Virus record (IMG/VR): IMGVR_UViG_3300008259_003073
Origin: a virus
Lineage: Duplodnaviria; Caudoviricetes
Length of the DNA stretch: 64,000 nt
Direction: 5' to 3' (one strand)
Under the pieces are notes generated by a model that searched no databases, was not told the DNA's origin, and saw only the letters and a program-made list of their open reading frames with translations. The position numbers and the translations under genes were made by a program. Shown here in pieces: positions 701 to 23,904 of the stretch; position 1 is the first letter of the stretch; the number at the start of each line of letters is the position of its first letter.

Positions 701-1480
701 TTAAAAATAAATGTTCTTTTCTATGTAAAATTGTGGATAGTTTCCACTAAAACTAACATCCCATACTTTATATCTATTGTAATGGTTAAAATCACATAAA
801 AATGCAAAATTATTTCTATATGGATAATCGTAATTTAATTTTCGTAAATCATTAAAAACTATATGTGAATACTGTTTTTCATAATTATCAATAAAATCTT
901 GAATTTCTTCAATTTTTAATTTTTTGTTTAATACAAACGCCATTTCAAATTCAAAATCTCCAATATGTTGATGTTCCTCTGGTCCAATCATACTACCACA
1001 TCCGAACCAATAGAAAGAATTTTCGTATTTCACTTTTTCACCATCTTCAAATTCAATAATTCCTACCAACTTTCCATTTTTATAGCATTTAATATTTCTT
1101 TCCAAAAAATGGTCACAAATCATAGCGTACTCATTGAATTCATTAGTTTCTTCTGGTAATAATCCGGTAAAAATTTGTTTTGAATACATTTCTGTTTTAC
1201 CATCTATTTCTTTTGAAAACCAATATGTAAATGCAATTGAAACAATTCCCAAATTATCTTTATAAGCAGAAATACCAGAATGCATTCCATTTCTGGCAAT
1301 AGCAAATGATTCTTTATTTTGAGCTACAGTATCAGGAAATATTTTAAACTTTAAGAATAAAGAAAAATCTTCATCCATATGTTTATCAATTCTAGATGAT
1401 ACGGAGTATCTACTTTCCGGCAAAACGAAAAATATATTATCTTTGTTTACTCTTAAACTCATATTTTTATTGTTGAACAA
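701..1480 (-). CDS. Hypothetical protein with probable LamG/concanavalin-like beta-sandwich
   Basis: ORF track 259 aa; FSLFLKFK, KCYKNGKLVG, YFWFGCG-like stretch (SFYWFGCG), LCDFN..VWDVSFSGN resemble Laminin_G_3 elements also seen in neighbours. Confidence 0.55.
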   Translation of the reverse strand: MFNNKNMSLRVNKDNIFFVLPESRYSVSSRIDKHMDEDFSLFLKFKIFPDTVAQNKESFAIARNGMHSGISAYKDNLGIVSIAFTYWFSKEIDGKTEMYSKQIFTGLLPEETNEFNEYAMICDHFLERNIKCYKNGKLVGIIEFEDGEKVKYENSFYWFGCGSMIGPEEHQHIGDFEFEMAFVLNKKLKIEEIQDFIDNYEKQYSHIVFNDLRKLNYDYPYRNNFAFLCDFNHYNRYKVWDVSFSGNYPQFYIEKNIYF

Positions 1481-2874
1481 AAGTTATAAAATTCTTCTAA
1501 TTCAGGAAATGTTTTACAAAAATCAGTTCCTCTACGTTTATCGTGGTTTGAAAAATATTGATAAAAACTATATCTATTTTTCATTTGTTGAGTCGCATCC
1601 TGTGGAGAAATCATCCAATCATAAATTCTTTTTACTTTTTGAACCTCAACATCGGAGTAACCAATGTGTTTTGGGTCAAATGATGGAGCTGCGTAGTAAG
1701 TGATTAATTTAGCCTGGTCAGTTATATATTTAGCATAATCAAATGGAAGTACTTGGACAGTTTGATGTAAAGGGTATCGTAGATATGATGAATCTAAAAA
1801 CACTGCAGAATTCCAATATCTATCAGTGGATGCGTATACATCTTTTAATGTGTAAATATTATGAATTAATTGTTCATAATTAAAAACACTTAACGCATTA
1901 TATGTCGACATGAATGTTATAATAGTTCTTGGGCATTTTGTAAGAATTTTATTTACATTATCCCAAAATTTATTAAATTCTAATCCAGTACGAATGTATT
2001 CTGCTTGCTCTCCCCATGTATCAACCGATGTAAATATGACAATTTCTTTTGCTCTACCTTCATCTTCTATTTTTTGTATCTTTTCGATTAATTTATCTAT
2101 CAACTTATCTGGAACTCCCAAATTAGAATTAATAGCCAGTTTCAATTCAGTATTTGGATTTGGATGTTCTATGATATAATCAAGTACTCCCCAAGTATCT
2201 TTACTCATAAGAGGTTCTCCGCCTGTGATTCTAAATGTATGAAGGTCTCTATACAAATCAGGCCACCATTTCCAAAATGCTTCTACATATGGATTATGTT
2301 CTTTATTTGGAATTGGTAATTTATCTTCGTTTTTCATCCAATCAACGGAATTAAAATTATCCAAAGTTGGGTATGCACCATGCTTTTCAATTTCTTCCAT
2401 CCACGCCGAACTATACGCAGGACCACAATATGAACATTTGAAATTACACGCATTACTAAATGCAACTTCTACATATTTTGGATTAAAATCATCTCTCCAA
2501 TCAGATTGAATAATGTCATTGATAAATGGATAAGACCAACTTTCACCAGATTTAAATATTCTATCCGAAAATCTATCCGAATTATCTTCTACATTCCAAC
2601 AATAATCACATTCAGAAGGTCTTGCTCCCTGTAACATTTCCTTTCTACGAAGTTTCTTATATCTCGTATTATGAAGTGCTGATGGGTTTCTAGCAATTTC
2701 AGTTTCTGAAATTTTATGTGTTTTGGGGTGGTGACATGAATGATTATGTCCACTTTGTAATTGTAGTGTAACTTGCGTCCATTTGGCAGCACACATACCA
2801 GGACCAACCACATTTAACTCGTCTTTAACGCGTAAATAAATTGGATTTTCACTATAAGTTTTATCTTCTGCCAT
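1459..2874 (-). CDS. Radical SAM protein with N-terminal Cys-rich (twitch/SPASM-like) region
   Basis: CNFKCSYC (CxxxCxxC), ITGGEPLM, extra Cys in MCAAKW..SCHHP and CDYCW. Confidence 0.9.
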   Translation of the reverse strand: MAEDKTYSENPIYLRVKDELNVVGPGMCAAKWTQVTLQLQSGHNHSCHHPKTHKISETEIARNPSALHNTRYKKLRRKEMLQGARPSECDYCWNVEDNSDRFSDRIFKSGESWSYPFINDIIQSDWRDDFNPKYVEVAFSNACNFKCSYCGPAYSSAWMEEIEKHGAYPTLDNFNSVDWMKNEDKLPIPNKEHNPYVEAFWKWWPDLYRDLHTFRITGGEPLMSKDTWGVLDYIIEHPNPNTELKLAINSNLGVPDKLIDKLIEKIQKIEDEGRAKEIVIFTSVDTWGEQAEYIRTGLEFNKFWDNVNKILTKCPRTIITFMSTYNALSVFNYEQLIHNIYTLKDVYASTDRYWNSAVFLDSSYLRYPLHQTVQVLPFDYAKYITDQAKLITYYAAPSFDPKHIGYSDVEVQKVKRIYDWMISPQDATQQMKNRYSFYQYFSNHDKRRGTDFCKTFPELEEFYNFCSTIKI

Positions 2875-2878
2875 ATTT

Positions 2879-4345
2879 TTATTTTAAACAATGAACATTT
2901 ATTAATTTGTGTTTATCAAAAATGATTTTAGTACTGATATGTTTATACTTCATATTATTTATACCATCTTTTTTATAATCAATTTTACCTTGCTGCATTT
3001 CTAATACATATCTTCTTTCGTTTCTTGCAGTGGTTTCACCTTTAGCCCATTTTTCAATACCACCTTCTTTAATTAAACCTTCAGTTTCATGTGGTAAACA
3101 GAAAAATTTACCATCTCTTCTATGTGGTAGTATTACATGGGGTATTTGTATTTCTCTTTCTTCAATACCAACATTATACAATACACCATCGTTTAATTCG
3201 GCCTGGTCTATTACAAATTTATCATCAACTATTTCATCAAAGTTATAGTGTAATACCAAACTATCGGTTGAATACTGCTTATGTAATAAATTAACTTCTT
3301 CACCAGTTAACGCTCTATCCCACATTTTAATATCAGCTATTTCACCTTTAAAAAATGCGTTTGGTTCAAATGGTTCAACCGTTGTCGTATGCCCTACATA
3401 AAATGGTTCATTTCCATATCGTTTTAAGTTATACTGATATTCAAACGGTGATTGCGTACCCGTTCCATTTCTAGCATCACTTTCATTTCCATTTAGATAA
3501 AAATGCATTTTCTTTTCCAAATCATCAATTACCATCGTAACCCACGTCCATTCTCCCTCATACCTTTTAAACCATTGGTAGATATGTTCTCTATGAGCAT
3601 TCCATAACATACCAGTATATGCCCTACTATTGTTAAATGATAATCCCCAATCATAACCTGGTTTTCTGAATATAGGATATTCTACGAATTTTCTGTTTGA
3701 ATCACCAATTAACCAAATAGGGACTTTTTCTATTTGTTGGTCTGCCTTTACTAATACAGAAATTGTATGTGAATTGGATATTGCTATTCTATTTTTTTCA
3801 GAAGATGGTATTTTGATGTATGAACTTTTACCATCAAATACTGCTACATTTTTTACTTTAGCGAAATCAATAGTTTGTTTATTAACATATCCTTCCATCA
3901 CACATCTCCAAAACAAATCATCATCTTCCATGCCCCAATCCCAATAATCATTTGAATAACCATTGGTTGCTAAAACTTGCTCTTTTGTAAAAACAACCGC
4001 ACCACCAAAGTATTCCTGATATTTTAATTGGTAATCCGATTGTGAGATACGAACTGCAATGTGTTGTGGATTTTCCATAGGATATGAATAATCACAACTA
4101 TCATCTTCGGGTACCATATCAATATCATGCCAAACTATGTAATCACATCCATCATCAATTGCATGTTTTGCAGCAATGTTTTTCATCAATCCTCTATTGA
4201 ATAGATATTCATCACACTGATGTGCAATATAAATGGTGTGGTCAATTCCTTTCTTTGTTAAGAAATTAGTAACCCAAGGAACAAATTGATTCATATGTTC
4301 CTCTCTGTTTCTATATGGTACGCAGACCCCTAACTTATGCCCCAT
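2879..4345 (-). CDS. GT7 (beta-1,4-galactosyltransferase-like) glycosyltransferase with inserted LamG domain
   Basis: VPYRNREEH, FNRGLMKN, HDIDMVP, YFGG, NGYSNDYWDWGMEDDD; LamG FKGEIADIKMWDRAL; GT7 C-terminus resumes at GKFFCLPH..DGINNMKY. Confidence 0.9.
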   Translation of the reverse strand: MGHKLGVCVPYRNREEHMNQFVPWVTNFLTKKGIDHTIYIAHQCDEYLFNRGLMKNIAAKHAIDDGCDYIVWHDIDMVPEDDSCDYSYPMENPQHIAVRISQSDYQLKYQEYFGGAVVFTKEQVLATNGYSNDYWDWGMEDDDLFWRCVMEGYVNKQTIDFAKVKNVAVFDGKSSYIKIPSSEKNRIAISNSHTISVLVKADQQIEKVPIWLIGDSNRKFVEYPIFRKPGYDWGLSFNNSRAYTGMLWNAHREHIYQWFKRYEGEWTWVTMVIDDLEKKMHFYLNGNESDARNGTGTQSPFEYQYNLKRYGNEPFYVGHTTTVEPFEPNAFFKGEIADIKMWDRALTGEEVNLLHKQYSTDSLVLHYNFDEIVDDKFVIDQAELNDGVLYNVGIEEREIQIPHVILPHRRDGKFFCLPHETEGLIKEGGIEKWAKGETTARNERRYVLEMQQGKIDYKKDGINNMKYKHISTKIIFDKHKLINVHCLK

Positions 4346-4346
4346 T

Positions 4347-5777
4347 TTACAATAATACTGATAGATGATGATAGTTATTCATTGATACATCATTTAATAC
4401 CTGATATAAACAATTGTTTAAACCATCCTTATCTGTGTTATATAATTTAGTTTTAATTTGATTTAAAAATCTTAATTGGTTTATACGAGTTTCTCTATGA
4501 ACCCAGTTTTTCTCATTCCAACTATTTGTTTTATGAGATAATAATTTAAATAAAGATTTTCTTCTATACGGAACCGTCATTTCTCTACCTAATGATTCAT
4601 GTGATTTTATGAAATGGCAATTATTAATTTCACCATTATTACCGTTAAAAGATAAATCTAATAGAGTATTTTCTTTGTAGAATTTAAAATCATAATATAA
4701 TTTTAAATGTTCCGCCGATTTATACGCTCTAAAATTTTCTAATAAAGAATTTTCCAAAACATTATCTGCTAATATAGAAATTTCTTTATCTTTCAATTTA
4801 CAATCGTATATTGCAAATTCAGAAATCATTCCATAAAAAAAGTTTGGGTTAGAATCCCTTTCAGGTGAACCAACGCCTAAATAAAAGTATTCTTCATCTG
4901 AATAATCCTTTGGAGCATTCTTTAGTTTTTCTGTACCTACTAATTCACCATCTTTATAAAAAGAAATTTCATTTTTTTTATAATCAAAAGTTAAACAAAT
5001 TTGAGTAAAATGATTAGTTAGTATTTCTGAATTAATAGAAGTGCAATCATCGGTATCATCCCAAAAATCTACTTTATATCTTCTAAAAGAATTATAACTT
5101 ATATTCGTATCGTATCCAGGTATTGAAAATACAGTATATTCATCATAATCATTATTTGGATTTGATATTATTTCATCAGGTTTAAATGTAATTATTATTG
5201 ATGTATCTTTTTCAAAATCTAATAAGTCTTTCTTTAGTATCCTGATGTAAGAATCATTTCCACTAAAAGATAACCCATATAATTTTTTGGTTTCATTTTT
5301 ACCAATAATTTTTGAATCCAATGGAATGCTCTTTTGATTAACCCTAAATAAAAGGTCATCATCTTCAAACCCCCATCCCCAATATAAATTAGAATATCCA
5401 TTTACTCTTTCAAATGTATCAGAACTAAACATAGTTACACCTCCAAAATAATCATCAAATGATAAGTTTTTGGATTTATCATATTCTAATTCAAAATTGG
5501 TTGCAAGGTGCATGGGTAATTCAGAATAAGAATAATCAACCTCAATTGGTAGCATATCCACATCGTGAAATACAATATATCCACATCCTAATTCTTTTGC
5601 TTTGATATACCCAATATTTAATAACTTCCCTCTATTAAACGGTTTATCATCGGTCTGTTCAACTACGATAATCTCGTGTTTAATTTTTTTGGATTTTAAA
5701 TATGAAGACATAGTTTCACCGAATCGTGCTAAATGCGATTCTCTATCTCTGTATGGTACAATTATTCCTAACTTCAT
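4347..5777 (-). CDS. GT7 glycosyltransferase with inserted LamG domain (paralog 2)
   Basis: VPYRDRESH, FNRGKLLNIG, FHDVDMLP, YFGG, NGYSNLYWGWGFEDDD; LamG FYGMISEFAIYD; C-terminal FKLLSH..DGLNNCLY. Confidence 0.9.
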   Translation of the reverse strand: MKLGIIVPYRDRESHLARFGETMSSYLKSKKIKHEIIVVEQTDDKPFNRGKLLNIGYIKAKELGCGYIVFHDVDMLPIEVDYSYSELPMHLATNFELEYDKSKNLSFDDYFGGVTMFSSDTFERVNGYSNLYWGWGFEDDDLLFRVNQKSIPLDSKIIGKNETKKLYGLSFSGNDSYIRILKKDLLDFEKDTSIIITFKPDEIISNPNNDYDEYTVFSIPGYDTNISYNSFRRYKVDFWDDTDDCTSINSEILTNHFTQICLTFDYKKNEISFYKDGELVGTEKLKNAPKDYSDEEYFYLGVGSPERDSNPNFFYGMISEFAIYDCKLKDKEISILADNVLENSLLENFRAYKSAEHLKLYYDFKFYKENTLLDLSFNGNNGEINNCHFIKSHESLGREMTVPYRRKSLFKLLSHKTNSWNEKNWVHRETRINQLRFLNQIKTKLYNTDKDGLNNCLYQVLNDVSMNNYHHLSVLL

Positions 5778-5782
5778 TTAGA

Positions 5783-6124
5783 TTATACTTTTTCTATATC
5801 TTTTTTAGGTCTTGCTCTACGAGGTGGCGGTAATTCTGCATCATTTTCAATTTGAGCAGGTTCGGTGGGAATACTTCCTTTAAAAGATGTTTCTGAACTA
5901 GATGATGACCCATTTTCTTTTGCAATGTTGTAGAATTCATAAAGATAATACGCAACTCTATCACTCCATTCTGATTTGTTAATTTCTTCAAACCAAATAG
6001 TAAGTGCATCTAAAGAATTGGCAATTTTTTCCAATGCTTTAACTTTTCTAGTTTCCAATACTACCGATTCCAAATTTTGTTCAGGTGTAGTTGTTGTGTC
6101 AGATTGTAACTTAACTTTCGCCAT
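5783..6124 (-). CDS. Hypothetical protein
   Basis: ORF track 113 aa, tightly packed in operon; helical core with low-complexity C-terminus. Confidence 0.7.
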   Translation of the reverse strand: MAKVKLQSDTTTTPEQNLESVVLETRKVKALEKIANSLDALTIWFEEINKSEWSDRVAYYLYEFYNIAKENGSSSSSETSFKGSIPTEPAQIENDAELPPPRRARPKKDIEKV

Positions 6125-6130
6125 TTATTT

Positions 6131-7588
6131 TTATATTTTAATTTGATGCTTATAAACTCCTGTTTTAATTTCTTCTGTTGATACTAAATCATATGATAAT
6201 GTATTTAATCCAAATTTATCAGTATCTAATATATCAGTTGCAATTTCATAAAAGAAAATACCTTCATTTTCTTCAAAAATATCATCTTTTACTTTCCAAC
6301 TATAATTTTGTAATTTAGTGAATTTTTTTGAATTTTCCAAGATTTGAAACCGTCCATTTGATTGTTCTGGCATATCAAATTCATAAGACAGGTTTAATTG
6401 TTCAGAATACAATTCCTGATGTAACCCAGTTGATACTATTCTTGGATTTGAAAATGTTTTAGAATCATCTACATAAAAATCTCCAAACTTTTTATCAAAT
6501 GGTACATTTATAACTGCTTCAAAATTTGTAGTTATTGTATCATTTATTGTTTTATACCCATCGGTGTATAGTTTTAATATTTCGGATTCTGCCAATGGGT
6601 AATCGAATAATAATAGGTTAGATATTTTGCCATTAAATGAATTTTTAAATGCCAAACTACCAATCCACAAATCTTTTCCTTTAAAGTCCATTAAATAATT
6701 TGGTAATCCATCCAGTGCTTGTACAAGTTTGCCATCAATGTATAGACCGGCTTTTTTCTTATCCATATCAACCTTTAATGACAGGTTTATCCATTGATTG
6801 ACATGTGCTTTGTGTGAATACCACATTTGATGTAAACTCTTATTATCATCCCACAATTGAACTACAATTGCATCGTTTTTCATAATAAAAATTCCCATAT
6901 CATAACCTTGTTTCCCAATAATACACGCATCGTTTGATTGATTATCGTTAATGAAAACATTCATTGATATTGTAAATGAATCTTCAAAAATATAATCGGT
7001 TGTTTTGCTTGCTCTTATAAACACACAATTATTTTCATTTGAATCAAAAGGATATATTGTTTTTTTAATATATTTATTTACCTCTTTTACATCTGTTAAA
7101 ACATGCGGTTTATATATATTTTTAGTAAAAAATCTCTTTGCAGATAATAATTTGTGTTTTTTTAATCTATATAAGAAATCTATCCAATGAAAAGAACCTC
7201 CCCAATAATCGTTACTGAACCCGTTTGCTTCGAAGAAATTTTCTTTTGTAATTTTAAAAGCTCCGCCTATCCAATGAGGATACGGTTTTAAATTTGCGGC
7301 TAAATGTGTTGGGTAGTATTCAAAATCATAATTACACGATTCTTGTCTTGGTAGAATATCAATATCGTGGAATATATAATAATCGGAACGATTTTGTGTT
7401 ATATCCGCACCAATATTACACAGTTTTCCATAATTAAAATAAACATCCGCATCTATTTGTTCGATGAAATGTATTTCGTAATCTATTTTATCTTTTAAAA
7501 AGTATTCCATGTGACCCACAAAGGTATACAGGTCTTGTAAACGATTGGAGTACGGTACTATAATTGATAACTTTTTACTATTCGCCAT
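6131..7588 (-). CDS. GT7-LamG paralog 3, catalytic motifs degenerate
   Basis: VPYSNR, FNYGKLCNIG, FHDIDILP retained; WGWGxEDDD replaced by WGGSFHWID; LamG FNGKISNLLLFD; C-terminal FGLNTLSY. Confidence 0.8.
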   Translation of the reverse strand: MANSKKLSIIVPYSNRLQDLYTFVGHMEYFLKDKIDYEIHFIEQIDADVYFNYGKLCNIGADITQNRSDYYIFHDIDILPRQESCNYDFEYYPTHLAANLKPYPHWIGGAFKITKENFFEANGFSNDYWGGSFHWIDFLYRLKKHKLLSAKRFFTKNIYKPHVLTDVKEVNKYIKKTIYPFDSNENNCVFIRASKTTDYIFEDSFTISMNVFINDNQSNDACIIGKQGYDMGIFIMKNDAIVVQLWDDNKSLHQMWYSHKAHVNQWINLSLKVDMDKKKAGLYIDGKLVQALDGLPNYLMDFKGKDLWIGSLAFKNSFNGKISNLLLFDYPLAESEILKLYTDGYKTINDTITTNFEAVINVPFDKKFGDFYVDDSKTFSNPRIVSTGLHQELYSEQLNLSYEFDMPEQSNGRFQILENSKKFTKLQNYSWKVKDDIFEENEGIFFYEIATDILDTDKFGLNTLSYDLVSTEEIKTGVYKHQIKI

Positions 7589-7602: not shown

Positions 7603-8451
7603 TTATATAGATATAATTTTTTTAAATAATTGTTTCCATTTTGAGTATCCTGAATAATGATAAGTTGGTGATAATTCGAATCCAAATCTCACATCATCCA
7701 ATGGTAATTTAAATCTAAATTTTGCCAATTCTCTATACATTTTTCGATATTCTTCTGAATATGAGTAATCTTTATTTATGTTTGCAACTGCTCTAATTCT
7801 TTCTCCACAAGTACTATCCCATTTAAAATGATGTACTTGCACACTGCATTTGTTAATTGGTGCAATCAGTGGATGATTCCAACCTTGCCATTTCCAAGTA
7901 GTATGTCCGTCTATTTTTGCATAATGCTGTCCGTTTGTAATTTCAACATACCCCTTTGCTATACAAATTTTATTAGGATTAGCACCACTTAACGGAAATC
8001 TAAAAAATCCTGCGTATGGAAACTTTTCAAATATGTCATCCGTATCTAATAATTCAACAAATTCACCATCCTCTCCAATTCTATCTATAAATCCACCTCT
8101 TACCATTTCCCATCCATTTACATCACAATTTGATGTGATACTTCGTAATGAATCCGAATAGACATGGAACTCATCATCATCGGATATTACCCACCAATCG
8201 TTTGGATGAGTTGATTTTACTTCATTGTAAAGTCTTGTTACCTTTTCCCAATTATACTTCTCTTCAATTACCGTTTTTACAATTTTAGCATTTGGAAATT
8301 GAGATACTATGGTTTTAACTTCTGATAAATTAGATTGCTCTTCCCAATCATATACAACAATATACATTTCATCCACTTTATCTTTGTAGTGGTTTAACAT
8401 ATGTTTTAATGTTGTTGTTCTAGAACCTGTTACCGTAACTAATCTAATCAT
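7603..8451 (-). CDS. GT-A fold glycosyltransferase (family 2/92-like)
   Basis: LKHMLNHY..VDEMYIV, WWVISDDDEF (DxD), NKICI, VHHFKW. Confidence 0.75.
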   Translation of the reverse strand: MIRLVTVTGSRTTTLKHMLNHYKDKVDEMYIVVYDWEEQSNLSEVKTIVSQFPNAKIVKTVIEEKYNWEKVTRLYNEVKSTHPNDWWVISDDDEFHVYSDSLRSITSNCDVNGWEMVRGGFIDRIGEDGEFVELLDTDDIFEKFPYAGFFRFPLSGANPNKICIAKGYVEITNGQHYAKIDGHTTWKWQGWNHPLIAPINKCSVQVHHFKWDSTCGERIRAVANINKDYSYSEEYRKMYRELAKFRFKLPLDDVRFGFELSPTYHYSGYSKWKQLFKKIISI

Positions 8452-9206
8452 TTTCTTTTAACTAATGTTAATCCAGTTGATGATGGTTTATTTTTTACTA
8501 TTCCAAAATTGAATAAATCAAATGTTTCCCACTTTGGATTATCTTTAAGTTCTTTAGCAAATGTAATTGGTCCATGCCAATCATCAAAATCACCTCTATC
8601 TTTTACTTCGTTTGTAACAATGTAACTATCTGCATAATTAGGGTCCGTATCGTGGATAGAAATGATACCATTTGGAGAAAGTAACTGCGAATATAGTTCA
8701 AAATCCTCTTTTACATTCTCATAACTATGACCAGCATCTATATGTAAATAATCTATCTGAATATCATTAAGAATAAAGTAATTATGAAAAGCGTCTTCTG
8801 TTGTTTTATTAATAATTCGTGGATGAAATGTTCTTCTGAAAAATGATTCTTCTCTAAACCAATTTACATGTCCACCAATACCGTTCATAGCATCAACAAC
8901 ATAAGTAACACCAATATCTCCCCAATTTAAATCAGAATTTCCTTCAAAAATGCCTTGTTTATGTAAATCGTAACGAGCCTGTGTCATTAATCTAGGTACA
9001 AATCCTCCACCTGAACCTAAACATACACAAGTTTTTGCTCTCATATACTGAATAAGAGAATAGATTATTAAACCATCTCCTAAATGATTATCAGTTGCTC
9101 CATGTGACCATCTATACGGAACTGGAACTTCTTCTTGCTCCTGATATTCGTTATATTCTAAATTGTTTGTTAGATAATTCTTTAAGTATTGTAAATCTTG
9201 TAGCAT
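8448..9206 (-). CDS. Class I SAM-dependent methyltransferase (Methyltransf_24-like)
   Basis: VCLGSGGG, IDYLHIDAGHSYENVKEDF..LSPNGIISIHD. Confidence 0.85.
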   Translation of the reverse strand: MLQDLQYLKNYLTNNLEYNEYQEQEEVPVPYRWSHGATDNHLGDGLIIYSLIQYMRAKTCVCLGSGGGFVPRLMTQARYDLHKQGIFEGNSDLNWGDIGVTYVVDAMNGIGGHVNWFREESFFRRTFHPRIINKTTEDAFHNYFILNDIQIDYLHIDAGHSYENVKEDFELYSQLLSPNGIISIHDTDPNYADSYIVTNEVKDRGDFDDWHGPITFAKELKDNPKWETFDLFNFGIVKNKPSSTGLTLVKRK

Positions 9207-10156: not shown

Positions 10157-11475
10157 AGCAATTTATTTATATTATTCATTATATTACAATAATGTGTTAT
10201 TAATTTTTGTTTGTTTTCTCGTAATATTACTGTATTTTTTATAAAAACATTTTTAATGTTATCTACATTTTTATCTTTTAAAAAATTCACTATCATATCG
10301 ATTTGTTCTAATTCATTTTTATTTTCAATTCCATTTAATCCAAAATCTTCTAAAAATAAATTTATACCTATTCTATTATATTCTTCATATACTTTATTTG
10401 AACCAAATATTAATGCAAACTTTTCAGATAATACTGGTTTTATTGATTTTTCTGTAAAGAATCCATATTTTAAATTAAAAATACAATGAGTTTCTCCAAC
10501 CACTTCAAAATATGATAAATCGTATTCTTTTTCTCTAAAATAATAAAGTAAATGGTCAAATTCAAATGGAGCATTTAATGGTGTAACATTTATTTCATTT
10601 CGTAAAGATTTGAGTTTATCAAAATTTTTAGTTGTAAAGTATTTTATATGATTATCGGTATGTGTTTTAGTATGGTCTGTGTATATATGCCCTTCACTAA
10701 CCATTTGTGAGTATTCTAATAAAAATTTTTCATTTATACAATTCAAACCTGTTTTTAATATATCAAATTCTTTTGCTTTTAACAAAAATTGAACTCTGTG
10801 AAATCTCGGTTTCAATGCCTGACTAGAATATACATATGGTTTTTCAGCATTATGTGTTATATTGAGATTTTTAAACACATCAGAAAAATTGTTATTATAC
10901 GGTAATTTACCATTAGTATGATGTGGAAATAAAAAATGTGTAAATTGTCCCTCCGCCATTAAATGAAACATACAATAGAATGAATCATAGTGAAAGTTTT
11001 TACCTTCATTAAATAATTCATAGTCTGTTATTTTAATATAATTAAATTTAAAATCATATCTAAAATATTTTTCATCTATTTCATATTCGTTTGCTTCTAA
11101 AAATGCAAAATTGAATAAAACTTTTGTGTTTCTTTCAACATATAATTTTTCCAATTTATCAAATTCAATTGGATTTTTTTTCATCAATGGTAAATAGAAT
11201 TCACTCCATATTTTTCTATCAACCACAATTATTAAATTATCAATTGGGTTTGAATACAATAAATCAAAAGTAGTTATACCATCAAATGATTTTAAATGAT
11301 TTAATATATTATATGGGTTTTGTATATAATGATGTATTTCAATTTCTTCACCACCATTATTTATAACAATTTTATGATGCTTTTCTATTTCTATTACATT
11401 TACAGAAATTAAATTTGCTTCTGGAAACAAATTTTGTAACTCATTATATGTTGCTAATATATTTAGTGACCTCAT
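10153..11475 (-). CDS. Putative GT-B glycosyltransferase with GT10-like nucleotide-sugar motif
   Basis: YFEVVGETH..FFTEKSIKPVLSEKFALIFG resembles alpha-1,3-fucosyltransferase motif FENS..YITEK..PVV.G. Confidence 0.5.
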   Translation of the reverse strand: MRSLNILATYNELQNLFPEANLISVNVIEIEKHHKIVINNGGEEIEIHHYIQNPYNILNHLKSFDGITTFDLLYSNPIDNLIIVVDRKIWSEFYLPLMKKNPIEFDKLEKLYVERNTKVLFNFAFLEANEYEIDEKYFRYDFKFNYIKITDYELFNEGKNFHYDSFYCMFHLMAEGQFTHFLFPHHTNGKLPYNNNFSDVFKNLNITHNAEKPYVYSSQALKPRFHRVQFLLKAKEFDILKTGLNCINEKFLLEYSQMVSEGHIYTDHTKTHTDNHIKYFTTKNFDKLKSLRNEINVTPLNAPFEFDHLLYYFREKEYDLSYFEVVGETHCIFNLKYGFFTEKSIKPVLSEKFALIFGSNKVYEEYNRIGINLFLEDFGLNGIENKNELEQIDMIVNFLKDKNVDNIKNVFIKNTVILRENKQKLITHYCNIMNNINKLL

Positions 11476-12427
11476 TTATCCAATTTTGTTTGTTTGTATA
11501 AAAATATAATCTTGTTGATAGTTTATGAAATTCAGAACTAACTATATCCATATCATCTTCTAAAATTTGTAAATACATTTGATGAAATTCTCCTTTACTA
11601 TTTGCCCTATATTTGTAATCGATGTGTGGCATCCAATCGGTATGTATAATTGGAATTTTACCATTATCAACTGCGTCAAAAATTGCATATCCAAATGGTT
11701 CTTTTGTATAACATCCGTGAAATATTTGAAAATTACTTTCAAAAAACTTTTGATGGAATCGATAATCGAATTCTATAAACCTATGGTAATCTGAATTGAT
11801 TTTAGAACCTTCTAACATTCGTTTGTAATCATATTTGTTTGAAAATATAATTGATGGAATGTAATCTAAATAATGTGCGTTTTTTCTGGTTTCACATCTA
11901 GCAGCATATCCAATTTTGTTAGATATAACGCCTGTAAATGGTTTTTTATTTTTCCATTCGTAATAATTTGTGATTGTAATGGTATTTGGATACATTTTAT
12001 GCATAGTATCGTTTTCATATCCAATCCAAACTATATTATCGGAATTATCTAGTATTTCTTTTTGCCATTTCCAATCCACTTTAGTCATTAGATTTTCATA
12101 CTCATCGTTCAATCCTAACATATCAGGAATAAAAGCATGCACAAAAGTAGTATGAATTTTGTGTAAATAATCTTTCAGTAAATCGTATGGTTTGTAGGGG
12201 TGATGTAAGATTACAATTTTATCACATTGTTGAAAAATTTTACGAACTTCATTATCGTTTTCGTAAGTATAAACCGCACCTTCTTCTCTAATCAAAGGTC
12301 TGCCAACTACAACTATTTTGTAATCTTCTTTTACTAATGGCAATATATTTTCTACAAAGTTATTGCACCAAATATCTGAACCACCAATAATGTTTTTACC
12401 ATAACCTGTTGTGATAAATACTATCAT
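11444..12427 (-). CDS. GT-B glycosyltransferase (GT4-like)
   Basis: IIGGSDIW near N-terminus, HTTFVH, EPFGYAIFDAVDNGKIPII (E-x-F-G..A..G.P). Confidence 0.7.
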   Translation of the reverse strand: MIVFITTGYGKNIIGGSDIWCNNFVENILPLVKEDYKIVVVGRPLIREEGAVYTYENDNEVRKIFQQCDKIVILHHPYKPYDLLKDYLHKIHTTFVHAFIPDMLGLNDEYENLMTKVDWKWQKEILDNSDNIVWIGYENDTMHKMYPNTITITNYYEWKNKKPFTGVISNKIGYAARCETRKNAHYLDYIPSIIFSNKYDYKRMLEGSKINSDYHRFIEFDYRFHQKFFESNFQIFHGCYTKEPFGYAIFDAVDNGKIPIIHTDWMPHIDYKYRANSKGEFHQMYLQILEDDMDIVSSEFHKLSTRLYFYTNKQNWINEVTKYISNI

Positions 12428-14518: not shown

Positions 14519-17500
14519 TTACCTATTTAATAACTTTTTAATTGATATTATTTCATTTTTTAATTCAACAATTTCACTATTTTGTTCTTTTATTCCCTCA
14601 ATCAATAAAGCAATTATCTTTTCATAATCAACTCCTAAATACCCATCTCCTTTTTCTCTTACAACTTCTGGTAAAACTTCTTGAATTTCTTGTGCTAAAA
14701 CCCCAACCTCTTGAATATTTTTTGGTTTGTTAGAAATACCGTTCCAATTAAAAGTATATCCTCCAATTTTTTTAATCTTATCCATTGGGTTTGAAATGGG
14801 AATAATATTTTCTTTTAATCTTTTATCAGAACTAGATAGTGCGTACATATCACCAGTTGCTCTAATATCACCATTAATAGTTAATACCCCACTTGATATT
14901 GAGATTTCACCAACTGATAAATTTGTTATTGCACCATTTGTTGCACTTAATGTTGAGAATGTACTCAAACCTGTAAAGTTTGATGACCCTTTTACTGTCA
15001 GAAAATTGGTAGAAGATAAACTGGTATCAACTTTGAATTGGTTTGACCCATACAAAGATTGTAAACCTGCTTGGCAAATTTCAACACTTCTTGGAGCACT
15101 ACCTACCACTGCGTTAACACCACTAAAGTTTGGTGTTTTTAATGTTATACTTTCACCACTAACTAAATAATTTACACCAATTTGATGTTTTATTCTAACA
15201 TCATATGTTCCGCCTGAAGGGATTATTATGGATGCTCCACCAGTAGAAGTTATACTTCTTTCATAATTTGGATTATTATAAAAAACATATCCAGATGCAA
15301 TTAACGCTTCCCCTACACCTACAACTTCCAAACTTATCCAATGATAGGTCTGAACGTAAGTAGCAGTAGATATTTGCATTAAGTACGAAGTACCAAGAGA
15401 GTTTGAAATCATTGCCGATATTTCCGCATCTGTCATAGAAACCTCTGTTCCAGCTGCAACAACACCCGTTGATACGGTATTTGAATTAAAAGTAGTACTC
15501 GCTTCAGCTTGTAAGTTTTGTCCAAATACAGGACCGTTTCTTGTTGTTGAACTTGTGCCACTAAAATCGGATAAAGCGGATGTAGAACTTGCTATTCTAA
15601 ATGAAGTATCATCCGTCATAATTACTGCGTTTCTAGACCCATCTTTTATGAAGAATCCTAAATCGGATGAATTTATTTCAATTGTACCAGTACTAGTTTT
15701 ACTTATCTTATCATTAGAAATTGACCAACCTCCAATTGTAGCACCTAATGCGGATAATTCACTTACTGTTATTTTATTAGCGGTTACCGCGCCAGCTGCT
15801 ATTGTGGTTGCGGTTACTGCGTCAGCTGCAATTTTACCTGCAATAATTGCACCAGCTGCTATTGTGGTTGCAGTTACTGCGTCAGCTGCAATTTTACCTG
15901 CAACTATTGCATTTGCAACTATTTTACCAGAAGTAACTGCATCTGCTGCTATTTTACCTTCCGTTACTGCATTAGCCGCTAATTCTGCATTTGTTACGGT
16001 ACTTAAAGTTGCCAATCCACCTAATCCAGTAACTTGTCCAGTTGATACGGTGTTTTGAGTTGCTAATGTTCCAAGACCAGTAACTTGACCAGTTGTAACA
16101 CTATTTGCAGTTGCTAATGTTCCCAATCCAGTTACTACAGTATTTGGAACTGTACTACCAACACTTAAATTACCAACTATGTTTAGATTTGTTCCATCCC
16201 AAGTTAAAGAATTTGTTGCAGATTTTAAAGAAAGTTTGGAAACTCCACTATCTTGACCTAAAAATATACCAGTATTATTAAACCCTTGAGAGGATTGTCC
16301 AATCGAAATATAAGGATTTGTAGAACCACCCGCTATAGTTATATTTGCCGAACTTAATGTGGTTGAAGTCGTACCAATGTTTATTGTATTTTGAACAAAT
16401 GAATCTTCAAATATACCTATTTTAGCTGCAACAAAGAAATCTTGTGCACCCAATGATATCCAACCCGTTTGTGATGATTGATGTGGTGCACCATCCGCGA
16501 CGTTTCCTGTAGCTGAAAGATGTTGTCTAGTGGTTGCGTAGTAAGTATTATACGGTGGTGAGCCAGTTGAACTCCATAGAACAGTATCTCTTCTACCTGT
16601 CCCAGTTGTTAACCCATCTGAAAATTGGTATGTTCTACCACTTGTCCAAACTCCAGTATGAACTACACCAGGTCCAGTTTGGCCATTGGCACCATTTGCA
16701 CCATTTGCTCCCGTTGCTCCCGTTGCTCCCGTTGCTCCGGTATTACCGATTCCACTTACTCCAACTTCAAAATCAATAGTTCTGCCAGTAAATGCAGTAC
16801 CTTCAGAGTTTCTGTAAGAAATAGTTATTACACCACTTGTACCACTAATACTAGTTGGAGTGTTTGGGGTGATTGTACCATTGCCATTATTTGTAGCGTT
16901 TGTGACACCAGTTATATTAAAAGTATTTGCTCCACTTGTATTGTATGTATAATTTGACCCACCTTCGTTTACTACAACGGTTACATTACTAGGTGTCCCT
17001 ATACCAACTAACGAACCACTAACTACGGTTTGTGATTGTGGATTTGCAGAAATGTTTACAACGGGTGCAGAACTTCTTACTCTAGAAATCGTAGCAGTTA
17101 CATTCTTTGTACCTGAAACACCTTCACTATCGGTGAAATTGACAGGAATTGTTACTGTTCCACTATCGGATGTCATCGAAGATGCATTACTTGAAAACAC
17201 TATTGTATTAGAAGAAACACTACCCGCTAATCCATTTGTATAAGTAGGTGTTCCTAATGATGTAAATCTACTTATACCACCTTCTAATGCAGTTACAGTT
17301 AGGGTTTGTGGTGTAGCTGAACCACTACCACGAGAATTTGATTGGATTGATTGTGCAGTTGGTGAAACTGAAACTTCCACATTTGGTACTCCTCTCTTAC
17401 TTTTTGAATAGGTTACCACCTTTGTTACATCAGTTGTATCTCCTGCTCCATCTTTATATCTTACTAATAACGTTAAAGAACCACTATCGGCAGTTAAAGT

Positions 17501-19759
17501 AGTAATACCATAAGTTGCATCATCAGGTGTTGAATCGTTTGCAATACAATTCACAGCAGTTGCAGAAATTACATCAAATCTATTATTTGTTGATAATCCT
17601 TCCTCTCTTGTAATATCTTCTCCACCAACTTTAACACTTACCGAACCACTTGTTGCTGCAAATGAAGCACTTGCTACAAATCCAGTTGATAATGCTGGTA
17701 ATGTTGCGTTCTCATTTGTAAGATTTACCGATAATCCATCTAATATTTTTACAGGAGTTACTTTTATAGCATCTGAAAATTGATTACCAAATTGGTCTGA
17801 ACCCGAAATGAAGTATGTAGTTTCGCCTGTTAAAAATGGATAAGATGCACCCGATAATGTGTAGGTATCTACTCCGTTTGTCGCATTTGTATCTACAAAT
17901 GTTAACGGTGGTTTACCACTACCCGAATTTACGGTCAATGGAGTTGTTGCCGATGCTAAATTCTTACGTTTAGCTTCGATTGTTATTATTTGACCTACTG
18001 GGTTTAAAGATAAATCAGTTGCTTTATAAATGAATTGGTTTGTATTAGATGTTACAAATAATCCAGGTGCATTTTCACCATCTTCAAATCTGTATACAGT
18101 TTCAAATTGTTCCAATCCCTCACAAGATGCAGTATATACAATTGAACCAACTAATACTGATGATATACTACCACTAAAATTTGCAATAGTTAGTGTTGCA
18201 CCCGCATCACTTACATTTGTTAATGTTCCAGGATAAGTTCCTCCGTATGATGATGGGTCTATGTAATTTCCTAAAGTGTCAAACGCAGACCTACCGTATG
18301 TAACAGAACCTGTTAAATTTGATTTTGAAACCTTAAATCCCAATTGTTGAAAAGCAGGATTACCAAATGAACCACTAGAAAATCTAAATGCAGTTCTATC
18401 CGAATCAAATGTTAATAATTTAGTGGTTATTCCTGCAGTTCCACCTGTAAAATTTGCACTTTGTGTTACCGATACTGGAACAAAATTATTGTTCACATCG
18501 TAAAATTCAAATTTAAAATTATATGTTTCATTACCAATAACTGTAGGCATTGTTGTAATAAACGAAATCTCATCTGGTGAAAATGCGGTATCTTCGGAAA
18601 GTCTTAAACTTATATTTCCAACATGCCATTCTCCTTGTGATTGAGAAAAATATAAAGAACCACTTTCAAAATCAGAATCTACTTTAAAAGGAACTACTGT
18701 ATCTAATAAATTTTTTGTAGGAGTTATTCCATTTAATGTAGTAATTAAAACATCACCCCCATCGGACCCACTTATGTATATTCCTAAATTACTTGCAGTA
18801 GATGATGAATAGAACGCATCCAAATTTAACTCGTAAGTATTTGATGCTTTTATATTCAATGATTGTGAATAAGTTAATAATCCACTTCCATTCAATTTCA
18901 ATCCACCCTCAACTCTACTAGATGTTAATTCAGTGGTTAATGAACCAGTGTTCCAAAATAAAGGCAATACTTCGGATGTAAATGTACCAGTGTTACCTAT
19001 AACACTTCCACTTAATTGTGTAGTTGTTAATAATTCTTTTGATTCTACTAATATATCTTGTATTAAATTAAAATCAGAAATATCTCCTTCAGAAGTTCTA
19101 AATACTTTTACTCTTTTTACATCACCCGCGAATGTTTCTAAATTTGAAAGTTTTATATCAGCAAATGATTGATTTACTCCAGAATCAACTTTTGAACCAC
19201 TTTCTATTCTGTATATTGGGGATAGTATTTCGTTAATAGTGGCAGTTGGTCTTTTATAAAAACGAATTTTGGTAGTATTTGCTAATGTAGGATTAACATT
19301 AACAGTTCTTTGCCACTTTACATTGTAAGTACCCTGCCAATCAATTGGTATAGGTGTTAATAACCCGTTGCCATCATAGTATGAACTTAATTCACCTAGT
19401 ATTGTAATTGTACATGGACCATACGCGGTTGTATCTGGATAAACATATACTGCTACAACTTTTGATACTCCTTCGTAGTATTCTGTAACAAATGTTTCAC
19501 CATCTATGGAAGAGGATACTATACCTTCTCCAGGTTCGTGATATATAGTATTTCCCGCAGCATCTTTAATTTCAATTTTAACTAAAGTATCGGCTACCAA
19601 TTCTTTTGAACCTGCTATTAAAAATGCGTTTTTACCACCAGTAAATGCATCAGGTATTTCTGTTACATTGAAGTAAGTACTGTTTGGAGCACTATCTACT
19701 ACGAATGTATTATACTTGTCTAAATTTTCAGCAAAAAGCGTTTTCTTTATTACGGCCAT
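14519..19759 (-). CDS. Tail fibre protein with collagen-like and helical repeats and C-terminal Peptidase_S74 intramolecular chaperone
   Basis: SSDKRLKENI..GYTFNWN..GVLAQEIQEVLPEVV..VDYEKIIALLIEGIKE; (G-X-Y)n; 10-aa AADAVTxxKI repeats. Confidence 0.88.
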   Translation of the reverse strand: MAVIKKTLFAENLDKYNTFVVDSAPNSTYFNVTEIPDAFTGGKNAFLIAGSKELVADTLVKIEIKDAAGNTIYHEPGEGIVSSSIDGETFVTEYYEGVSKVVAVYVYPDTTAYGPCTITILGELSSYYDGNGLLTPIPIDWQGTYNVKWQRTVNVNPTLANTTKIRFYKRPTATINEILSPIYRIESGSKVDSGVNQSFADIKLSNLETFAGDVKRVKVFRTSEGDISDFNLIQDILVESKELLTTTQLSGSVIGNTGTFTSEVLPLFWNTGSLTTELTSSRVEGGLKLNGSGLLTYSQSLNIKASNTYELNLDAFYSSSTASNLGIYISGSDGGDVLITTLNGITPTKNLLDTVVPFKVDSDFESGSLYFSQSQGEWHVGNISLRLSEDTAFSPDEISFITTMPTVIGNETYNFKFEFYDVNNNFVPVSVTQSANFTGGTAGITTKLLTFDSDRTAFRFSSGSFGNPAFQQLGFKVSKSNLTGSVTYGRSAFDTLGNYIDPSSYGGTYPGTLTNVSDAGATLTIANFSGSISSVLVGSIVYTASCEGLEQFETVYRFEDGENAPGLFVTSNTNQFIYKATDLSLNPVGQIITIEAKRKNLASATTPLTVNSGSGKPPLTFVDTNATNGVDTYTLSGASYPFLTGETTYFISGSDQFGNQFSDAIKVTPVKILDGLSVNLTNENATLPALSTGFVASASFAATSGSVSVKVGGEDITREEGLSTNNRFDVISATAVNCIANDSTPDDATYGITTLTADSGSLTLLVRYKDGAGDTTDVTKVVTYSKSKRGVPNVEVSVSPTAQSIQSNSRGSGSATPQTLTVTALEGGISRFTSLGTPTYTNGLAGSVSSNTIVFSSNASSMTSDSGTVTIPVNFTDSEGVSGTKNVTATISRVRSSAPVVNISANPQSQTVVSGSLVGIGTPSNVTVVVNEGGSNYTYNTSGANTFNITGVTNATNNGNGTITPNTPTSISGTSGVITISYRNSEGTAFTGRTIDFEVGVSGIGNTGATGATGATGANGANGANGQTGPGVVHTGVWTSGRTYQFSDGLTTGTGRRDTVLWSSTGSPPYNTYYATTRQHLSATGNVADGAPHQSSQTGWISLGAQDFFVAAKIGIFEDSFVQNTINIGTTSTTLSSANITIAGGSTNPYISIGQSSQGFNNTGIFLGQDSGVSKLSLKSATNSLTWDGTNLNIVGNLSVGSTVPNTVVTGLGTLATANSVTTGQVTGLGTLATQNTVSTGQVTGLGGLATLSTVTNAELAANAVTEGKIAADAVTSGKIVANAIVAGKIAADAVTATTIAAGAIIAGKIAADAVTATTIAAGAVTANKITVSELSALGATIGGWSISNDKISKTSTGTIEINSSDLGFFIKDGSRNAVIMTDDTSFRIASSTSALSDFSGTSSTTRNGPVFGQNLQAEASTTFNSNTVSTGVVAAGTEVSMTDAEISAMISNSLGTSYLMQISTATYVQTYHWISLEVVGVGEALIASGYVFYNNPNYERSITSTGGASIIIPSGGTYDVRIKHQIGVNYLVSGESITLKTPNFSGVNAVVGSAPRSVEICQAGLQSLYGSNQFKVDTSLSSTNFLTVKGSSNFTGLSTFSTLSATNGAITNLSVGEISISSGVLTINGDIRATGDMYALSSSDKRLKENIIPISNPMDKIKKIGGYTFNWNGISNKPKNIQEVGVLAQEIQEVLPEVVREKGDGYLGVDYEKIIALLIEGIKEQNSEIVELKNEIISIKKLLNR
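15792..15910. repeat. Near-perfect 60-bp tandem duplication inside tail fibre
   Basis: ccagctgctattgtggttgc(g/a)gttactgcgtcagctgcaattttacctgcaa.. occurs twice with 60-nt period. Confidence 0.9.
16672..16750. repeat. Collagen-like G-X-Y repeat (9-bp units)
   Basis: GNTGATGATGATGANGANGANGQTGPG; ttgctcccg repeated. Confidence 0.9.
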
Positions 19760-20036: not shown

Positions 20037-20746
20037 TCCTCGTGTGAGTAGAATGATACTATATTATATTTAATATCATTCTTTACTTTTTCAACTTCAT
20101 GGAATAAATTTTTATCAGAATCTAATACTACAAAATTAGGAAAAATTGGATTTACTTTAATATCATTTCCATTTAAATCATGTAATATCAAATGCCCACC
20201 GTTTGATTCACCCCATTCATTATTTAAAAAATACAAAAATACACATATTCTGTTGTTAGGTTGTCCATCATCGTGTAATTTTATTTCGCAACCTTCATTG
20301 TAAAATTGCAGTTTTGTATTTTCAGTAAATCTACCAAACGATTTTTCAGGATAGTATTTTTTTACAAAGTTTTTTTGAAAATTTCTTAATACTTCATTGT
20401 TTATTTTTCCATTTATTTCTGAATTCATAGAGGTACCAAATACCCAAGTTGGATAAAATCCACATTCTTCAATTTTTTTCAATTGATATTGATGTGCTTT
20501 ATTATAAACATAATCGGCAGTATTTAAATCTTTATCATTTTTTAAATACCCATCATACACCAATTCTTCCATATATGATTGGTCGTTGTATTTAAACCAA
20601 TAATCATATCTAGAATGTCTTACAAAATTTGTATTATCTATATAATCTTTTATTTGTTTAAACCCATCTAAATCGATTAGTTCGGAATAATCTTCCAACT
20701 TACCGTAAATGTATCCACTATTTCTGTAATTTTCTATACTTTCCAT
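20033..20746 (-). CDS. 2OG-Fe(II) oxygenase
   Basis: KLHDDG (HxD), FLYFLNNEW..NGGHL, LFHEVEKV. Confidence 0.85.
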   Translation of the reverse strand: MESIENYRNSGYIYGKLEDYSELIDLDGFKQIKDYIDNTNFVRHSRYDYWFKYNDQSYMEELVYDGYLKNDKDLNTADYVYNKAHQYQLKKIEECGFYPTWVFGTSMNSEINGKINNEVLRNFQKNFVKKYYPEKSFGRFTENTKLQFYNEGCEIKLHDDGQPNNRICVFLYFLNNEWGESNGGHLILHDLNGNDIKVNPIFPNFVVLDSDKNLFHEVEKVKNDIKYNIVSFYSHED

Positions 20747-23700: not shown

Positions 23701-23904
23701 CCAACTAATCTCCCTAACTAATTCAGGAGATAATTCTAATTTAGCATGAGCAATATCACCTGCTAAATAAATGATTGAATCATCCGTACCTCTTTTACGA
23801 ATCTCCTCAAACATCTTTTCAAAAACCTGTCTGTACTCATTGTGTCTTTTCACATTACGGATGTGTATATCTGCAATATGATAAATCTTTTTCAATCTAC
23901 TCAT
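20746..23904 (-). CDS. Fused Mre11/SbcD nuclease - Rad50/SbcC ATPase (gp47-gp46-like fusion)
   Basis: ADIH, GDIAH, GNHD, GDIH phosphoesterase motifs; APNAAGKSS Walker A, coiled coil with CKFC hook, CSGMEK signature, IDEGFGTLD Walker B/D-loop, ISH. Confidence 0.93.
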   Translation of the reverse strand: MSRLKKIYHIADIHIRNVKRHNEYRQVFEKMFEEIRKRGTDDSIIYLAGDIAHAKLELSPELVREISWLFTECSKHCETILITGNHDCNMNNSDRLDVLTPIVDALNLPNFTYLKDTQVYGIGGIDFAVFSIFDNKANWPKANTIFGNKKIALFHGPVDNSQTDIGYTVSSRHFTTDMFDGYDLALLGDIHKRQEMISPKGCKVVYAGSLIQQNFGETLDKHGFLVWDLDTFTYEAVDIQNDYGYYTMDIDNGKVPIVSDMPKKPRLRVRLSNTDSADTKRVMAEIKMRYGVEDFTIIRTDSLSKSKTGDRLNKLDFEDISDINYQNSLINEYIERMMPFVVPEDLKGLELINRDINSRIVQDDIQRNIQWKPIRFEFSNMFSYGESNKIDFTKLNGLVGLFAPNAAGKSSLFDAVSFCLYDKSSRAYKASNILNNRKTDFDCTLYFQIDGVEYGIQRTAKTINKGKNVKVDVQFWRQDGDTKTSLNGTERRDTNQIIEQYVGKYEDFVLTALSLQGNNALFIDKSQSERKDLLAQFMGLTIFDKLYDTATEDIREVSVLIKNFKKTDFTTELAEKGKELLEKKSQLKGLEVLLSDKNTEVSELNDKIVNLSRELTPIDSNLDLSLLESKRNSISKQIEDAETDYELKESKIEQHKILLTEVSQSLFEKCKFTIDDNEVDIEIAHNDFVKQSKDLVEAEKVYQKAKQQLEVAEEKIGHLNNHQYDPNCKFCCDNEFVKDAVKAKSDLEGLQISVEHTFNEVAAINCVLDSLNGVEEQYNEWNELKNKYSRSKIILEKTQIELSALKTKEQLLQNQLDTIDENIDKYYENEDTISRNKEIESEISELNKAKNTIANDISKLNKDITNLNGSITSISSFIEDIKQKMNDVKALEEKNRLYTYYLDSVKRDGIPYELISKALPVIENEVNNILAQVVDFGVTMEMDGKSINAKIVYDDQEWPLEMCSGMEKFVSGLAIRVALINVCNLPRPNFLVIDEGFGTLDSDNLSSLFMMMQYLKTQFDFIWIISHLEQMRDIVDGLIEIKKENGYSKINF

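Follow-up and report, generated by a model that had tools for sequence, protein, structure and literature searches.

The described enzymes closest to the proteins reported here are the animal beta-4-galactosyltransferases B4GalT1 and B4GalT7 of glycosyltransferase (GT) family 7, a family that groups with GT27 in a clade of the GT-A fold (PMC7185993). In the polypeptide N-acetylgalactosamine-transferases of GT27, acceptor choice is set by an attached lectin module, a C-terminal ricin-type domain on a linker, and B4GalT1 has a specifier of its own in alpha-lactalbumin, a separate protein. In phages, glycosylation of virions by phage-encoded glycosyltransferases has been described for mycobacteriophages (Freeman et al. 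2023); the enzymes in that report belong to other families, and it describes neither GT7 nor a nested LamG. Glycan genes also lie among the tail-fibre genes of aquatic T4-like phages, where the 'host recognition cluster' of pelagimyophages carries glycosyltransferase and radical S-adenosylmethionine (SAM) cassettes (PMC7029224), but that paper describes neither GT7 nor a nested LamG, and its assignment of the cluster to the O-chain was made without tests. Here we describe three GT7 proteins encoded on the IMG/VR virus record IMGVR_UViG_3300008259_003073 (Duplodnaviria; Caudoviricetes), each with a LamG domain nested inside its catalytic domain, which lie in a conserved gene cassette. The window referred to below is the whole analysed stretch of 64,000 nucleotides, and the three proteins and the segments of one of them, P0002, are encoded in it as follows.

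6131-7588, minus strand: P0001, third GT7-LamG copy, 485 amino acids (open reading frame, Pfam, model, motifs)
4347-5777, minus strand: P0002, GT7-LamG A, 476 amino acids, catalytic residues intact (Pfam, phmmer, model, conservation)
2879-4345, minus strand: P0003, GT7-LamG B, 488 amino acids, catalytic residues intact (Pfam, conservation, adjacency to A)
5298-5777, minus strand: P0002 residues 1-160, N-terminal GT7 segment with the Rossmann-like half, DxD, G-loop and xED helix
4572-5288, minus strand: P0002 residues ~164-402, nested LamG/pentraxin-like beta-sandwich (Pfam, DSSP of the model, structural alignment)
4350-4571, minus strand: P0002 residues 403-476, C-terminal GT7 segment with a strand, His415, the lid residues W425, T430, R431, N433 and Q434, and DGLN..Y

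An earlier note on this DNA had described three paralogs in which the GT7 sequence stops after WxWGxEDDDxxxR, gives way to a LamG domain and resumes with its C-terminal segment, and this is borne out by Pfam mapping together with models of P0002 and P0001. Glyco_transf_7N was matched at 53-71 bits in all three proteins (cut-off 27) and Laminin_G_3 at 46.0, 51.2 and 51.7 bits (cut-off 27.6), while Glyco_transf_7C reached 62 and 66 bits in P0002 and P0003 (cut-off 23) and 22.5, just under the threshold, in P0001. Of the 78 positions of the 7C profile, the match reaches only 59-60 and ends at residue 150-153, right after WGWGxEDDDxxxR, and in P0002 the Laminin_G_3 match then covers residues 173-334. 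Among solved structures, residues 2-151 found B4GalT7 and B4GalT1 (phmmer against PDB, E 1e-26 to 1e-24). The C-terminal 80-90 residues alone gave no match by phmmer or Pfam, and since this segment is too short for detection by sequence, its membership of the fold had to come from structure.

The AlphaFold model of P0002, with 77 relatives in the alignment, reached a predicted local distance difference test (pLDDT) score of 93 and a predicted template modelling (pTM) score of 0.86, and the model of P0001 reached 89.7 and 0.79, respectively. Foldseek, a local aligner, covered only the first 156 residues of the P0002 model. With a gap-tolerant aligner, residues 1..476 of this model were superimposed on residues 180..398 of bovine B4GalT1 (1tvy_A; Z 26.2, root-mean-square deviation 2.4, 212 residues), and residues 1..485 of the P0001 model on B4GalT7 (4irq_B; Z 26.3). 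The alignment with B4GalT thus runs from end to end, and in these models the N- and C-terminal pieces are a single GT-A domain, the middle ~240 residues being a LamG-type two-sheet sandwich. Residues 164-402 of P0002 align with the LamG-like module of PAPP-A (Z 21.8), with BACOVA_03559 (4dqa; Z 21.8) and with pentraxins (Z 17-19), and the insert of P0001 (176-402) with PAPP-A at Z 22.8. Over ~185-207 aligned residues, PAPP-A, BACOVA_03559 and pentraxins (8A7D, 4DQA, 7ZL1) share 12-17% identity with the insert, which differs from them in being nested in an enzyme; the modelled likeness is one of fold only, and the fold includes many non-lectins.

Compared with B4GalT1 and B4GalT7 (1TVY, 1NF5, 4IRQ, 3LW6), the phage proteins have the same GT-A fold (Z 25-26, ~205-212 residues aligned), 30-35% identity in the N-terminal part, and in common the DxD, WGWGxEDDD, the C-terminal His, DGLN..Y and the Tyr before FGG. 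Unlike the animal enzymes they have no membrane anchor or stem, beginning instead at the first core strand (B4GalT1 residue ~180), and have the 240-residue LamG placed after the xED helix and before the strand of the C-terminal His. All three thus belong to GT7 by Pfam models (with 7C of P0001 just under) and by fold, and A and B have the DxD, the His and the xED base, of which P0001 lacks the His and the base.

The site of insertion is the tip of a beta-hairpin flanked by the xED helix and by the strand with the metal-binding His, and in P0002 the insert is joined to the catalytic domain by two long strands, 154-172 on exit and 388-402 on re-entry. On the GT-A map of Taujale et al. this site falls between the core elements xED and C-His (PMC7185993), and by our own reading it lies outside the three hypervariable regions in which GT-A families usually elaborate. 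The pTM values of the whole chains (0.86 and 0.79) suggest a fixed placement of the modelled sandwich relative to the catalytic domain. A motif YDF....D.S.NGN.G ends both the nested LamG domain (P0002 ~358-385) and a free-standing LamG encoded at 701-1480, which is described below with the cassette. Motifs of this type usually precede Laminin_G_3 domains, and the position at the domain end may reflect a permuted sandwich common to the nested and the free-standing form.

Homologues in which the catalytic domain is contiguous, unlike that of the phage GT7-LamG proteins, are found in bacteria. When prokaryotes were scanned at one genome per species, 109 related stretches were confirmed; 80 loci were kept, and most of these match residues 2-156 only, with 36-53% identity. 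The bacterial open reading frames inspected are 192-332 amino acids long, mostly 210-265, and have no insert; they pass from ...EDDDxxxR over ~15 residues to ...LxH...GL..L.Y, at a place where the phage proteins have ~245. Four of these homologues were tested, and all pass both Pfam 7N and 7C, with the 7C match contiguous to profile position 66-77. Identity over residues 2-156 is 37-53% for uninserted bacterial homologues of 213-261 amino acids. Such proteins, for example from a Waddliaceae metagenome-assembled genome (MAG; L089, 218 amino acids), Simkania (L090) and Azospirillum (L110), start at the same core strand as the phage proteins, and to our knowledge none of the uninserted GT7-like proteins has been characterised. 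When inserted and uninserted forms were put into one multiple alignment, the C-terminal segment was misplaced, and the second high-scoring segment pair of BLAST together with structural alignment was used instead; for L089 this second pair (residues 153-206 against P0002 405-455) is collinear but weak.

The existence of these uninserted homologues, in addition to the structural alignments, implies that the phage LamG is a true insertion into the catalytic fold rather than a terminal fusion, as the earlier note had proposed. The view held there that GT7 is mainly eukaryotic was overstated, since the 109 prokaryote stretches include, among those inspected, short proteins without the insert that score above threshold for both Pfam GT7 models, and GT7-like enzymes are therefore not essentially eukaryotic. 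A search for shorter close relatives of the phage form turned up nothing but incomplete copies of inserted proteins. The catalytic parts were placed in a maximum-likelihood tree, from which the distant third-copy clade (L039 type) was left out and whose backbone was unresolved. One lone and distant GT7-LamG protein (28% identity, B-like) was seen on a 196 kb Spirochaetaceae MAG contig (L087), outside the usual cassette and with unrelated genes around it; as a possible outlier of cellular or prophage nature it may help to trace the origin.

Two of the three copies are retained as an intact pair. At the 81 loci from which pairing was counted, A and B are adjacent wherever the contig allows, often overlapping by a few bases, and in the window B starts 2 nt past the stop codon of A. 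Among 65 A and 63 B orthologues no exception was seen to HDxD, the C-terminal His (His415 in P0002), FNRG or the Tyr before FGG (Tyr110), and the catalytic-base motif E138-D139 is invariant in both groups. WGWGxEDDD is likewise invariant in A, and the corresponding motif in B is W(D/G)WGxEDDD. The ratio of nonsynonymous to synonymous substitution rates (dN/dS) is 0.08 for A and 0.05 for B; within A it is 0.17-0.22 for the insert versus 0.10-0.14 for the catalytic part. Judged by these residues, A and B would be active enzymes that form an obligate adjacent pair in the cassette. They differ consistently at acceptor-side positions (G134 versus D, residues around the His, and the lid), which fits two different specificities, and the Tyr before FGG is a sequence hint at a non-acetylated hexose donor. 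The earlier note had spoken of a trio: three paralogs are indeed present here and the three complete genomes carry only the 2-3 GT7-LamG copies of the cassette, but the conserved unit is the A and B pair, and the third copy, placed upstream of it in 32/81 loci, is optional. Prediction of a complex of P0002 with P0003 gave a score of 0.00, for which control pairs were not run, and is counted neither for nor against binding.

The third copy shows a different pattern of conservation. P0001 keeps HDID, but has WGGSFHWID for WGWGxEDDD, ILENS for LxH (His to Asn) and FNYG for FNRG, so that the earlier description of this paralog (DxD kept, WGGSFHWID, no His) holds, with loss of the DxD (HSPY) confined to two third-type sequences (L016/L017). 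FNYG is found in 27/27 local and 54/54 database cluster representatives of the third type, in which the lid motif (T430, R431, Q434) is lost as well. In the clade of the window (58-96% identity), WGG.FHW.D and LEN/G replace the base and the His, E138-D139 becoming H-W; a clade of 40-45% identity has GGFEY.D, and a clade of 30% identity keeps the Asp and the His and has lost the Glu. These varied losses of core elements among sub-lineages are the pattern expected of a released catalytic constraint. The open reading frames are nevertheless intact in 27/27 loci, the FHW motif is itself conserved, and dN/dS is 0.10-0.11 overall and 0.10 for the catalytic part (least saturated pair).

Family-wide replacement of FNRG by FNYG, loss of the xED base and the C-terminal His, and a dN/dS of about 0.1 together argue that the third copy is probably a retained non-catalytic paralogue, or pseudo-enzyme, as had been suggested from its sequence. 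It is quite improbable that it is still an enzyme, relying on substitute residues such as His138 and Glu414 or catalysing another reaction (hydrolysis, or transfer from another donor): conservation of the FHW and of the Glu before the lost His, retention of the DxD in most members, and a precedent in other GT-A families that compensate for a lost C-terminal His (PMC7185993) would agree with this, but no member retains the Arg of FNRG, T430, R431 and Q434 of the lid are gone, and different sub-lineages have lost different elements (the DxD in L016/L017, the Asp of xED in two clades, the His in most). An analogy may be drawn to pairs in which a GT fold with lost catalytic residues is likewise kept beside an active paralogue, namely chondroitin polymerizing factor with chondroitin synthase and Cosmc with T-synthase. 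Chondroitin polymerizing factor and Cosmc are non-catalytic paralogues that partner active ones. The phage third copy differs from them in occurring in only ~40% of cassettes, and a partner role for it may at most be suggested by this analogy.

The three genes lie among the following neighbours, in a window that is tightly packed, has its genes on one strand and a G+C content of 29%, and derives from a large tailed phage.

5783-6124, minus strand: P0004, small conserved protein, 113 amino acids, between P0001 and P0002 (neighbour cluster 7)
1459-2874, minus strand: P0005, twitch-domain radical SAM enzyme, 471 amino acids (NCBIfam NF033640 N_Twi_rSAM, E 3e-105)
701-1480, minus strand: free-standing LamG paralogue of the inserted domain, ~250 amino acids (hidden Markov model built from the insert, hhalign)
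7603-8451, minus strand: GT2/GT92-like GT-A glycosyltransferase, 282 amino acids (weak Pfam Glyco_tranf_2_4; language-model neighbours GT2 and Glyco_transf_92)
8448-9206, minus strand: methyltransferase, 252 amino acids (Pfam Methyltransf_24, E 3e-12)
14519-19759, minus strand: long tail fibre, 1746 amino acids, 25% Ser+Thr, with a C-terminal S74 chaperone (Pfam Peptidase_S74, composition)

Clustering of neighbours across 88 related loci revealed a cassette of conserved order: a long fibre-like open reading frame, a GT-B-like gene (49/88), a methyltransferase (83), a GT2/GT92-like gene (85) and, where present, the third copy, followed by a small helical protein (50/88), A, B, the twitch radical SAM enzyme (79), a LamG protein of ~250 amino acids (60) and variable sugar-nucleotide genes. 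The fibre-like frame, of 1000-1766 amino acids, is found a few genes upstream of the cassette in most related loci. The radical SAM gene (NF033640) is present in 1-6 copies per locus, with up to six tandem paralogues in some phages (e.g. L047). Genes of the P0004 type are always directly upstream of GT7-LamG A and combine the core LEERKVKALEKIANSLDALTIWFEEIDK.EWS.RI.YYLYEF with a variable Ser/Pro-rich tail; P0004, absent from the earlier note, matched no Pfam or NCBIfam family, and it might serve the cassette as an adaptor or carrier. Pfam alone gave no match to the free-standing LamG, which was recognised by the insert-built model (E 3e-7, with orthologues to E 1e-24) and was aligned by hhalign to the insert columns with a probability of 99.4% (E 9e-22, columns 32-238 against 188-392). 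All open reading frames of the island lack a hydrophobic 19-mer of the kind seen in membrane helices, and this lack of membrane-type segments suggests that the cassette enzymes are soluble. A further neighbour, at 11444-12427 on the minus strand (327 amino acids), had no Pfam match; by language-model features it is nearest to clusters of the T4 DNA alpha-glucosyltransferase (AGT) and to generic GT-B families.

Elsewhere the window encodes baseplate wedge proteins, the tail fibre with S74 chaperone and a fused Mre11/Rad50-like nuclease. The latter is a single open reading frame of 1052 amino acids (20746-23904, minus strand) in which a calcineurin-like phosphoesterase (Mre11/gp47-like) is fused to an ATPase of the SMC/Rad50 type (gp46-like); T4 has two separate genes for the gp47-like and gp46-like functions. 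A full-length carbamoyltransferase (43002-44699, minus strand; Carbam_trans_N E 1e-59, Carbam_trans_C E 3e-66) lies amid structural genes and may be another tailoring enzyme.

The nested architecture is widespread. Database matches to P0002 number more than 2,786, nearly all of those listed sharing the same three Pfam domains, and relatives are encoded on 227 IMG/VR stretches, with contigs of up to 289 kb. Several ESM Atlas clusters with the GT7-LamG architecture are labelled 100% viral (Uroviricota). Full-length matches in 'bacterial' MAGs (Flavobacteriales, Pelagibacterales and a Firmicutes MAG) come with the same cassette, and probably represent phage DNA that was binned with bacteria. None of 50,697 deposited phage genomes was matched in blastn and tblastn searches. 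Lake and freshwater metagenomes of several studies (2019-2025) repeatedly contain sequence identical to this stretch, and one estuary metatranscriptome contains contigs of 94-97% relatives that span the three genes, which were not counted as expression since carry-over of DNA is possible. A database protein labelled Cyprideis torosa (P0077, 506 amino acids) consists of three phage GT7 N-segments in the order third copy-A-B and without LamG; it is probably phage contamination or a misassembly in the ostracod assembly.

Searches of the literature for GT7 proteins (Glyco_transf_7) in connection with phages or Laminin_G_3 brought up neither a GT7 with nested LamG nor a phage GT7. New here are also the uninserted bacterial homologues, the A and B pair with its optional third copy, the mosaic decay of the third copy along with purifying selection on it, the cassette and the free-standing LamG.

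The reading that we favour, with a confidence only slightly better than even, combines an active A/B pair, a nested LamG serving as acceptor module, a third copy serving as scaffold and a phage structural protein as target. A, B and the third copy would be soluble cytoplasmic proteins of the beta-4-galactosyltransferase type (GT7, inverting, metal-dependent GT-A). A and B would add two successive hexoses from uridine diphosphate (UDP)-sugars to a sugar acceptor during the building and tailoring of a glycan, a hexose donor being anticipated from the invariance in both of the Tyr that excludes N-acetylhexosamine donors in B4GalT1. By analogy with the lectin domain of GT27, which differs in not being nested, and with alpha-lactalbumin, the nested LamG may be a built-in module for recognition of the acceptor or carrier, and the free-standing LamG would serve cassette enzymes that have no LamG of their own in the same way. 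The third copy, its fold kept and its chemistry apparently gone, would most likely be a subunit for binding or scaffolding without catalysis of its own. As acceptor, which is the least certain step in this scheme, a structural protein of the phage would be likeliest, for example the neighbouring tail fibre rich in Ser and Thr. A virion protein is favoured as target because the enzymes appear soluble, the island lies among fibre genes and glycosylation of phage virions has a precedent. One may tentatively extend this to aquatic jumbo phages in general as the possible owners of a self-contained, soluble and lectin-guided machine that builds a modified glycan on their own tail fibres, its parts being the two GT7 enzymes with their LamG readers, the pseudo-glycosyltransferase, the free-standing LamG, the radical SAM enzyme for tailoring and the methyltransferase, though we would not call this extension probable.

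Several observations weigh against this reading. The fibre is absent beside the cassette in L049 and L065, and its adjacency elsewhere is largely inherited synteny among related phages. The AGT likeness of the protein encoded at 11444-12427, a lead only, keeps a DNA target alive. Since other GT-A families can compensate for a lost His, inactivity of the third copy is probable and not certain, and the tree of catalytic parts speaks neither for nor against the inserted forms having arisen only once.

A rather doubtful alternative, which would be compatible with any target, is that the nested LamG is an assembly module tying A, B, the third copy, the radical SAM enzyme and the free-standing LamG into a complex. 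Up to four LamG modules per cassette, one of them free-standing, the strict adjacency of A and B, and the maintenance under selection of a non-catalytic third copy are all consistent with assembly, and insertions in the GT-A domain of plant cellulose synthase serve oligomerisation. LamG, pentraxin and ConA-like folds most often bind ligands, however, and the dN/dS of the A insert, slightly above that of the catalytic part, fits the tracking of a variable ligand at least as well as a fixed interface.

That the cassette instead remodels a surface glycan of the host during infection (the O-chain of lipopolysaccharide, or capsule), for instance to block superinfection and with lipid-linked or cytoplasmic precursors as acceptors, seems to us unlikely. 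Modification of the O-chain is the published interpretation of the host recognition cluster in pelagimyophages (PMC7029224), and sugar-nucleotide genes (epimerase/dehydratase and others) flank the cassette here. Against this, the island has no membrane segment in its open reading frames, and no polyprenyl-phosphate transferase, flippase, polymerase or Gtr-type protein was recognised there; moreover, the cassette is conserved in phages binned with very different hosts (Flavobacteriales, Pelagibacterales, a Firmicutes MAG), whose surface glycans differ.

It is quite improbable that A and B extend a glycan carried by modified bases in the DNA of the phage, like the multi-sugar glycans known from 5-hydroxymethylcytosine, in spite of the DNA glycosylation known from T4-like phages, the documented sequential GT-A/GT-B pathways with epimerases (bioRxiv 10.1101/2023.12.21.572611) and the AGT-like neighbour, since the cassette lies among tail-fibre and not replication genes, the LamG sandwich is no known DNA-binding module, a ThyA-family hydroxymethylase candidate is absent from 2/3 complete cassette-bearing genomes (a mild objection, to the hydroxymethyl-pyrimidine route only), and Pfam AGT and Tet_JBP had no match in the three complete genomes (a weak point, control genomes being equally silent).

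Insertion of a domain into the conserved GT-A core is unusual, and here such an insertion has become fixed in thousands of phage proteins, in a family whose beta-4-galactosyltransferase-type enzymes can no longer be seen as essentially eukaryotic. If the nested LamG reads the acceptor, these proteins would be a compact natural example of a lectin wired into a glycosyltransferase for specificity, for which the pseudo-enzyme and the free-standing LamG would offer natural comparisons. If aquatic jumbo phages do possess the lectin-guided machine considered above, its glycan on the fibre would alter host recognition or shield the particle, and the system would be a phage counterpart of the lectin-directed O-glycosylation of animals. 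The cassette would be a widespread glycan-building unit of abundant freshwater and marine phages, and its product, be it on the virion, the host surface or the DNA, probably bears on their host range or their evasion of host defence.

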